64,000 bases of DNA from the NCBI GenBank assembly GCA_041937175.2, contig CP166615.1, positions 2,944,001-3,008,000 on the forward strand, read 5' to 3'. The notes beneath the pieces are model-generated. The model saw nothing but the letters and a program-made list of their open reading frames with translations, had not been told where the DNA came from and made no database searches. The translations under genes and the position numbers were made by a program. This document shows, one piece after another, positions 55,725 to 56,310 of the stretch. Source of the DNA: Limnothrix sp. BL-A-16. Lineage in GTDB: Bacteria > Cyanobacteriota > Cyanobacteriia > CACIAM-69d. Within the stretch, counting starts at the first letter, position 1; each line of letters opens with the position of its first letter.

Positions 55725-55888
55725 ATAGCCCAGTTACTATAGCATGTTTATTTGATTTGCCAAGGGCCCGGGTTAAATTTCTGTGTCCAAAGTGGCCAAG
55801 GGGGGTCGATCGAGCTGGCCAGTCCGGGCCGGCGCGTCCTCAGAAATGATCGATTGCCCATACCCCGATCGTCTTAACAAGGGGCTTA

Positions 55889-56076
55889 GAGGATGTCGTC
55901 ATTTCCATCGCCGTAGGGGTTGGGTCTCCCAACCCTAATCCGGGCGATCGCTACAACCCTGTTCACCCCTGGGAACACCCAAGATCACGGGAACTGGGCG
56001 AGGAGACCCCGCCCCTACGACTGATCGGTTGGGAGAACGAGATCATCAGAGTTTCAGGCGATCGGACGACAGGCCC
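55889..56076. mobile_element. MITE, family B ends with a GTAG-REP doublet as cargo
   Basis: Ends GAGGATGTCGTCATTTCC / TTTCAGGCGATCGGACGACAGGCCC; inverted REPs at 55913-55936 and 55996-56018; preceded by half palindrome CAAGGGGCTTA. Confidence 0.8.
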
Positions 56077-56104
56077 TTGTATGTGGAAGGCGGTGGAGCA
56101 GGAA

Positions 56105-56310
56105 GGTTAAGCTCAGGCATAATCGACCCTCTCCCATCCGGTAGAGACTCTGGACAGGCCCTGAAGCTCCGAAGCTTGAGGCTTAGATTGAAGAGCCGAC
56201 CGGAACCCGCCTTCCCGGACACTGCCAGTAGACTGAACAGTATTCAGAGTGACCGCTTGAGCGCTGTCACCTCGGATCAAGCAAGGGTAGCACTGGGTCA
56301 GTGACCGTCC
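56105..56310 (+). ncRNA. IS110 bridge RNA (ends approximate)
   Basis: Target loop ACAGGCCCT (56154-62) / hairpin / GGCTTAG (56180-86); donor loop ACAGTAT (56237-43) / hairpin / CAAG (56278-81) closed by the CACTG-CCAGT..ACTGG-CAGTG stem. Confidence 0.85.

Follow-up and report, generated by a model that had tools for sequence, protein, structure and literature searches.

Position of an IS110-family element at the edge of a MITE

The stretch of DNA analysed here (the window, 64,000 nucleotides of the genome of the cyanobacterium Limnothrix sp. BL-A-16) contains a locus at which half of a dispersed palindrome, a MITE and an IS110-family insertion sequence (IS) follow one another directly. This arrangement raises the question of whether the IS is guided to the end of the MITE and, if so, which sequence its guides would read there. 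An earlier note on this DNA had given the order half palindrome, MITE and IS110, and its coordinates hold in the list of features below, in which all positions refer to the window.

55878-55888, plus strand: half palindrome CAAGGGGCT-TA, that is CAAGGGGCTTA, left of the MITE
55889-56076, plus strand: MITE copy of 188 bp, with a degenerate left repeat, GAGGATGTCGTC, and the right terminus GACGACAGGCCC at 56065-56076
56069-56077, plus strand: left target and core, ACAGGCC-CT (identical to ACAGGCCCT), in the flank of the IS
56078-57401, plus strand: IS110-family IS, 1324 bp with one copy of the CT core counted
56078-56332, plus strand: left non-coding end, presumed bridge-RNA gene, with an architecture like that of IS621 (PMC11208160)
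56138-56203, plus strand: target-binding stem-loop of the alignment fold, with an outer stem, an internal loop and an inner hairpin (56164-56177)
56154-56162, plus strand: left target guide ACAGGCCCT, on the 5' side of the internal loop
56180-56186, plus strand: right target guide GGCTTAG, on the 3' side of the loop, reverse complement of CT-AAGCC
56237-56243, plus strand: left donor guide ACAGTAT, the same as the last 7 bases of the element
56333-57346, plus strand: transposase gene, 337 aa from ATG, with an alternative TTG start at 56318
57393-57401, plus strand: left donor ACAGTAT and right copy of the CT core, the same end as in relatives L006-L013
57402-57406, plus strand: right target AGGAT, identical to AAGCC at 2 of 5 positions, 4 of 5 pairing if G.U/G.T wobble is presumed
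57400-57909, minus strand: flanking convergent ORF, whose TAG stop overlaps the core and the TA
39231-39372, no strand assigned: MITE of 142 bp, its left end forming an empty 13/14 target (39225-39238, minus strand) and its right end carrying ACACGCCC

The MITE ends with the C at 56076, and the TA duplication begins with the T at 56077. About 9 further copies of the 188-bp MITE are present in the genome, with 82-92% identity over about 140-210 bp. A tRNA gene (55651-55724, minus strand, 59.7 bits) lies about 150 bp to the left of the half palindrome, and the spacer between this gene and the convergent ORF is filled by the repeat cluster.

The element is an IS621-like member of the IS110 family

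The transposase encoded by the IS scored 101.8 bits with PF01548 (cut-off 29), 85.9 bits with PF02371 (cut-off 21.3) and 244 bits with NF033542, 'IS110 family RNA-guided transposase' (cut-off 140). It aligned full-length, over residues 9-328, with the IS621 transposase (PDB 8wt6, E 6.5e-68), and also with that of ISCro4, so that the analogy with IS621 in REP sequences proposed earlier was apt in that the two transposases are homologues. The motifs kept with respect to IS621 are GID/GID, EAT/EAT, D-x-x-D (sDqaDa vs tDtvDa) and SGtSVRG/SGsSVRG, and the D, E, D, D and Ser that we take to be the catalytic residues of IS110 transposases are all retained in this alignment. The IS has no terminal inverted repeats, the 2-bp CT core is the only duplication at its junctions, and precise empty sites exist. 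Assignment to the IS1111 type, in which the inverted repeats are subterminal and the guide region follows the transposase gene (PMC11187229), was considered and rejected, the non-coding DNA amounting to 255 bp upstream of the gene vs only 53 bp downstream. This 255-bp upstream end is that of the IS110 type, and the element at 56078-57401 is thus an IS621-like member of the IS110 family, of the IS110 type.

Guides in a conserved loop match the flanking DNA

The single-sequence fold of the left end was uninformative, being no better than shuffles (z -1.16) and pairing both guides together, and an alignment fold was therefore used instead. This fold, computed from four sequences (the window element and three cyanobacterial relatives with 58-64% protein identity to its transposase), comprised 16 consensus pairs, 6 of them with compensatory changes, and a large internal loop whose 5' side holds ACAGGCCCT and whose 3' side holds GGCTTAG. 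The layout agrees with the one published for IS621, in which the 5' side of the target loop pairs with 8-9 nt of the bottom strand and the 3' side with 4-7 nt of the top strand (PMC11208160). An Rfam scan of 55400-57800, with E up to 1, returned the tRNA and a chance sRNA match, and no bridge-RNA family.

Together, the left guide and the right guide specify ACAGGCC-CT-AAGCC. In each of the four IS copies present in the genome, the left guide has the same sequence as the top strand of the left flank, and the right guide matches the right flank of one of these copies (copy D, see below) at 7 of 7 positions. Relatives of the IS carry other guides. In L007 the left guide ACGCACCCT equals the left flank at 9/9 positions, just 4 bases of the right flank being visible. 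The left guide likewise agrees with the left flank at 9/9 positions throughout L009-L013; in L009 and L010, where it reads GGTGTCTCT, the reverse complement of TTTTGTAG also equals the right flank CTACAAAA (8/8). In L014 the left guide GAGAGATCGT matches at 10/10 positions and the reverse complement of GACGTGAG equals CTCACGTC (8/8). Matches were imperfect in L008 (about 7/9 on the left, with 6/6 of the visible bases on the right) and in L006 (8/9 and 5/7). Across the relatives, then, the guides covary with the flanking target DNA, different guides matching their own flanks.

The five loci L009-L013 come from an Abditibacterium MAG and belong to a 47%-identical relative, of which 5/5 copies lie at the right edge of an inverted doublet of about 80-90 bp, GAGACACCGAT...ATCGGTGTCTC, with a variable centre and with its last 9 bases equal to the left guide (bases about 870-1200 of each locus). 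These relatives are a second case of end-of-repeat targeting in the IS subfamily. In L007 (bases 870-960) the left junction is partly tandem-duplicated, AACGCACCCTTGTATGTAGGAGGGGTCGGAGGTGGAAGTGGA being present twice.

Regarding the donor side, the alignment row of the left donor guide (GGACAGTAT/GGACGGTAT) is almost invariant in 7 relatives. Inspection of the left end by eye found no right donor guide complementary to TGTATG, and the circle junction ACAGTATCTTGTAT had 0 matches in the assembly. The right end of the IS (57374-57401), also read by eye, consists of TTGCGC, 17 bases and TATCT, which would form a -35/-10-like pair over the circle junction once the initial T of the left end is added; a TTGCGC or TTGACG of similar kind was seen by eye in relatives of the IS too. 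Contigs from an RNA library (run X14) cover parts of the element, one of them with MITE flank, and are uninformative on the bridge RNA, ends and strand. By homology with IS621, a bridge RNA is probably made and its base pairing probably directs recombination.

Target sites are abundant, mostly empty and located at MITE termini

The 14-mer ACAGGCCCTAAGCC occurs 31 times in the genome of the window (G000; 4.54 Mb plus a 15.9-kb contig), against 0.047 expected, with 14 occurrences on the plus and 17 on the minus strand. All 31 are preceded by GACG or GACA, that is, they form part of a MITE-family terminus (GACGACAGGCCC plus TA). In 23 cases the site is the end of a repeat-bounded MITE, and beyond 18 of these 23 MITEs lies the other palindrome half, so that they split the palindrome CAAGGGGCT-TA-AGCCCCTTG. 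These counts bear out the idea, already put forward in the earlier note, of a guide tuned to the junction between a MITE end and the palindrome, and it is well supported that the target loop fits MITE termini, and fits best where a MITE meets a palindrome half. The terminus GACGACAGGCCC itself has 84 exact copies vs 0.95 expected, and 215 with up to 1 mismatch, of which 157 are followed by TA. With reversed patterns as controls, neither ACAGGCCCTAAGCC nor the palindrome was matched at all, and the terminus string GACGACAGGCCCTA was matched once, in a single unrelated genome.

A search of the window for such termini gave 6 matches, vs a mean of 0.19 in 100 shuffles. The empty 13/14 site reported earlier, ACAGGCCCTAAGCT, was found again at 39225-39238 on the minus strand, and the other MITE termini listed with it (39361-74, 44744-57 and 44919-32) each differ by one base in the match to the 9-nt left guide. 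If rG.dT/rU.dG wobble is presumed to be tolerated on the right side, 39 sites in the genome count as empty targets, 39/39 of them at termini. A comparison of occupied with empty sites, as proposed in the note, thus gave targets that are abundant and mostly empty, whether counted as exact (31) or with wobble (39).

The genome contains four copies of the IS, with at least 99.9% identity, which a DNA search placed on contig C1 at 438685, 2154197 (copy D), 3000078 and 3394392. All are on the plus strand although MITE termini occur on both, an orientation that is not significant with n=4. Each copy has GA[C/T]GACAGGCC-CT on its left and ends in ACAGTAT-CT on its right, and all four adjoin MITE-family termini. 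The right flanks following the CT core are AGGAT in copy A (the window copy), AGGCC in B, AAGTC in C and AAGCC in D. Natural variants of the target are ACACGCCCT, ACAGACCCT and ACAGGCTCT in the left half and AGGCC, AAGTC and AGGAT in the right half. To the left of copy D (C1:2153950-2154196), arms of about 68 bp form a tandem array that G000 does not share with the same-genus genome G002, and the orthologous spacer of G002 (contig C85) holds another tandem repeat, made of CAGAATCAAGCTCAAAC units.

Two further insertions were deduced from one-sided loose ends of contigs assembled from public runs. In run X1 the IS lies beside AGCCCCTTGCCCCCACGACTACCCGCG, a 27-mer unique in G000 that flanks the exact empty site C1:4078407, and in run X7 it lies beside the terminus at C1:4145193, where the site reads ACAGGCCCTAGGCC. 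Six out of the six known insertion sites are consequently at family termini, and the expectation that copies of this IS would be found at MITE ends held for the four genome copies as well as for the two insertions in other samples.

Contribution of the right half of the target

Only copy D lies in an exact 14-mer, and 31 exact sites remain empty. The full complementarity claimed in the note was correct as a reading of the 14-mer but does not extend to the window copy, which has AGGAT instead of AAGCC as its right flank and thus sits in an imperfect site. As this flank agrees at only 2 of 5 positions, right-side pairing is not strictly required. One could then argue that only the left half of the target (the MITE terminus plus T) matters, that any MITE end is targeted and that the 7-nt complementarity on the right is an unused by-product. 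No palindrome half adjoins copies A and B, wild-type IS621 has only 4 bp of right-side pairing (PMC11208160), and a 2026 preprint reports insertions at sites matching just half of the bridge RNA. Nevertheless, we regard this explanation as unlikely. The right guide matches the commonest flank, AAGCC being found at 31 of the 163 exact-left-match sites and the next commonest flank only 6 times. Moreover, once G.U/G.T wobble is admitted, pairing with GGCUUAG is complete at 5 of the 6 insertion sites (B, C, D, X1 and X7), whereas this holds for only 42 of 167 exact-left-match sites (39 empty and 3 occupied), a difference with a binomial P of about 0.005 that has to be read knowing that two of the sites come from one-sided loose ends and that the sites are non-independent. 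The right-guide matches of 8/8 in relatives also speak against an unused by-product, and we retain the junction of MITE terminus and palindrome half as the best-matched target.

The short repeats behave as a MITE

The repeats at whose ends the IS is found constitute a small, multicopy family with terminal inverted repeats and without ORF. Repeat pairs at a distance of up to 400 bp numbered 109, of which 74 measured 135-155 bp, and TA was present on both sides in 73 of the 109 repeat-bounded copies. At the locus of copy B, G002 reads GATGCCTTAGGCCTGG, whereas G000 has TA-MITE-T-IS-CTA, that is, a 142-bp MITE flanked by duplicated TA and bordered on the right by the IS. TA duplication with the whole unit present or absent is characteristic of IS630/Tc1-type DDE elements, which move by cut and paste, and the short repeats behave as a MITE that duplicates TA on insertion in a Tc1/IS630-like manner. 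Units of about 142 bp (e.g. window 39231-39372) consist of two head-to-head arms of about 66-75 bp with the palindrome between them; these arms fall into several families with only their ends in common, and copies nest in each other's central TA. The search for an autonomous element with the MITE terminal repeats covered the G000 genome and found none, and 5 of 20 long repeat pairs (1163-1341 bp) that were compared showed no mutual similarity. Three IS630-like (PF13358) copies of about 1034 bp (C1:1246903-1247935, C1:8-1040 and C1:1391348-1392379 of G000, one with an in-frame TAG) were rejected as the autonomous partner, since their ends, TACAGCCYTTRCC, differ from those of the MITE.

The 20-bp palindrome CAAGGGGCTTAAGCCCCTTG has 326 copies in G000 vs about 0 expected. 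Its flanks are unique on both sides in 70 copies, on one side in 86 and on neither in 170, and 201 of the 652 half-flanks run on as one arm of about 66 bp ending in GACGACAGGCCC. The palindrome is also central in 71 of the 74 MITEs of 135-155 bp (exact in 42), so that three separate levels are not established; in describing the locus as a three-level nested parasite, the earlier note went further than these figures allow. The exact palindrome was found in 9 of 21 related cyanobacterial genomes, belonging to 7 of 16 genera, with copy numbers of 326, 272, 94, 28, 38, 17, 9, 7 and 1. Among loci L054-L065, which cover genomes G003, G013 and G017, its flanks were unrelated in 4/4 copies inspected in G003, and in G013 and G017 it stands in other repeat contexts, among them arrays in G013 (C1:1422231-1422546) with a spacing of about 73 bp. 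The terminus GACGACAGGCCCTA has 71, 17 and 38 copies in the same-genus genomes, 1 in G003 and 0 in 17 other genomes, and is thus essentially confined to the genus. A literature search with the palindrome and terminus strings returned two unrelated primer matches only.

The repeats might alternatively be REP- or REPIN-like, or small dispersed repeats spread in another way, which would make the present case a plain instance of an IS110 element in REP sequences, like IS621. The lack of an autonomous element with the same terminal repeats among those found, the REP-like palindrome with its unrelated flanks in several genera, and the REPIN-like inverted doublets adjoining all five Abditibacterium relatives are all in keeping with such a view. 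However, the TA present on both sides of 73/109 copies and the presence or absence of a whole 142-bp unit with TA duplication at locus B argue for a MITE, and we consider a REP-like nature quite improbable.

The IS has moved recently, into targets that existed before it

In contigs of 3 public DNA runs, position 56075 of the window is followed directly by 57400; the stretch left out measures 1324 bases, and an ambiguity of 2 bases corresponds to the CT core. The window locus is thus empty in these runs, yet the IS is present elsewhere. The depth of IS contigs was about 3-4x the flanking depth in X1, X4 and X7, ratios that do not equal copy numbers. In the sister genome G002 the window locus reads ...GACGACATGCCC-TA-GGAC..., without the IS. 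At locus B, where G002 has neither MITE nor IS, the order of events was MITE first and IS second, and the target ACAGGCCCTAGGCC was absent there before the arrival of the MITE. Exact 14-mer sites number 12 in G001 and 17 in G002, the two same-genus genomes. A DNA search with the IS in 40 related genomes gave nothing beyond one 43-base match at chance level, and a protein search in G001-G003 gave no homologue at E 1e-5 or better. These results indicate that targets exist in genomes of the genus lacking the IS, i.e. they pre-exist it, and that the IS is active, with direct evidence of recent movement.

Spread of a whole MITE-plus-IS block, through duplication or homologous recombination, would account for four nearly identical copies with 13 left-flank bases in common, but as the way in which the IS came to lie at MITE ends it is barely credible, given that, past those 13 bases, the left flanks are of three repeat types (the 188-bp MITE, the 142-bp MITE twice at different loci, and the tandem array of about 68-bp units), that the right flanks of the four copies all differ, that G002 and three runs have precise empty sites, and that the IS lies at other termini in other samples.

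Proposed explanation

The reading that we favour, with a probability of nearly 0.9, is that an active IS621-like IS inserts next to MITE termini by means of bridge-RNA guides that match the junction between terminus and palindrome. Direct observations are the family to which the transposase belongs, the boundaries of the element, the location of the guides within a loop that is conserved and covaries, the occupied and empty sites and, for one locus, the order of events. In the proposed sequence of events, a MITE (GGGCCTGTCGTC...GACGACAGGCCC) landing in the central TA of CAAGGGGCT-TA-AGCCCCTTG would create the target sequence. The left guide would cover the last 8 bases of the MITE repeat and the T of the TA duplication, and the right guide would extend over the core and the A and take in 4 bases of the palindrome half, whereupon the IS would insert just outside the MITE repeat, at any of numerous intergenic sites. 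Since the guide RNA matches the end of a very abundant MITE, the IS lands beside MITE copies. It is placed after the last base of the MITE repeat (...GGCCC|T-IS-CT|A...), hence transposition of the MITE would not carry it along. The MITE supplies and multiplies landing sites only, without carriage of the IS, and the 'dispersal vehicle' of the earlier note has to be abandoned, the IS being outside the element.

A further step is more tentative, and we would put it at somewhat less than even odds: that the right guide was retuned, after entry of the IS into the genus, to a junction arising only from the nesting of MITEs in palindromes. If so, the IS would be a dependent third tier, supplied with its best sites only as fast as MITEs continue to nest in palindromes, and we would be looking at a natural bridge RNA evolving toward the commonest composite junction in a new host.

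Comparison with known systems

IS110 elements 'often' target repeats, in the words of PMC11208160. Among the closest parallels is IS621 of Escherichia coli, the founding bridge-RNA IS110 element, which, like the IS of the window, has its non-coding end upstream of the gene, a CT core, a target loop in which the 5' guide is 9 nt long and the 3' guide shorter, and a multicopy repeat as its target. The wild-type target of IS621, ATCAGGCCTAC, has CAGGCC..CTA in common with the target described here, and right-guide complementarity amounts to 4 bp in wild-type IS621 and to 7 nt in the window IS. The IS621 target lies inside the REP, whereas that of the window IS straddles the end of the MITE repeat, the TA duplication and a palindrome half; the host of the window IS is, moreover, a cyanobacterium.

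A MITE is also the hot spot of an element of the IS110/IS1111 group in Coxiella burnetii. Of the 21 IS1111 copies there, 20 are associated with QMITE2, where the insertions are in a REP within the MITE, and strains differ in whether certain sites are filled (Wachter et al. 2018, PMC5896051). The target there is the GTAG REP inside the MITE, in contrast to the MITE terminus of the present case, and IS1111 has subterminal inverted repeats and its guide region downstream of the gene (PMC11187229), unlike the window IS. The QMITE2 paper (PMC5896051) contains no analysis of guide/target pairing. ISPpu9 and ISPpu10 of Pseudomonas putida resemble the window IS in being IS110-family elements in multicopy intergenic repeats and differ from it in that their targets are REP or stem-loop sequences. 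The specificity of ISPpu10 is reported to depend also on a second element, a stem-loop lying 5' of the target, and the literature on ISPpu9 includes a 'MITEPpu9'.

Terminal repeats of transposons as targets have reportedly been described too, Partridge and Hall being said to have shown in 2003 that IS4321 and IS5075 target those of Tn21-family transposons. The insertion point of these elements is within the terminal repeat, not at its outer edge. They are of the IS1111 type, and their targets are large autonomous Tn21-family transposons, not MITEs. Targeting of a MITE (IS1111 in QMITE2, PMC5896051) and of transposon ends (IS4321/IS5075) are therefore both on record, and the earlier note's suggestion of an undescribed kind of targeting goes too far. 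In the literature searched we found no IS110-type guide spanning a MITE terminus together with its flank, and no cyanobacterial case.

The mechanism is therefore a known one and is itself unchanged; what is new is the type of natural target. The locus provides a well-documented natural target of a bridge-RNA recombinase outside Proteobacteria, with occupied and empty sites, empty sites in a sister genome and insertions differing between samples. It illustrates that a guide may read over the boundary of another mobile element, that a 7-nt right guide tracks the commonest flank and that mismatch or wobble on the right side is tolerated in natural insertions. More generally, it suggests that a burst of small repeats may create a niche for an incoming IS.
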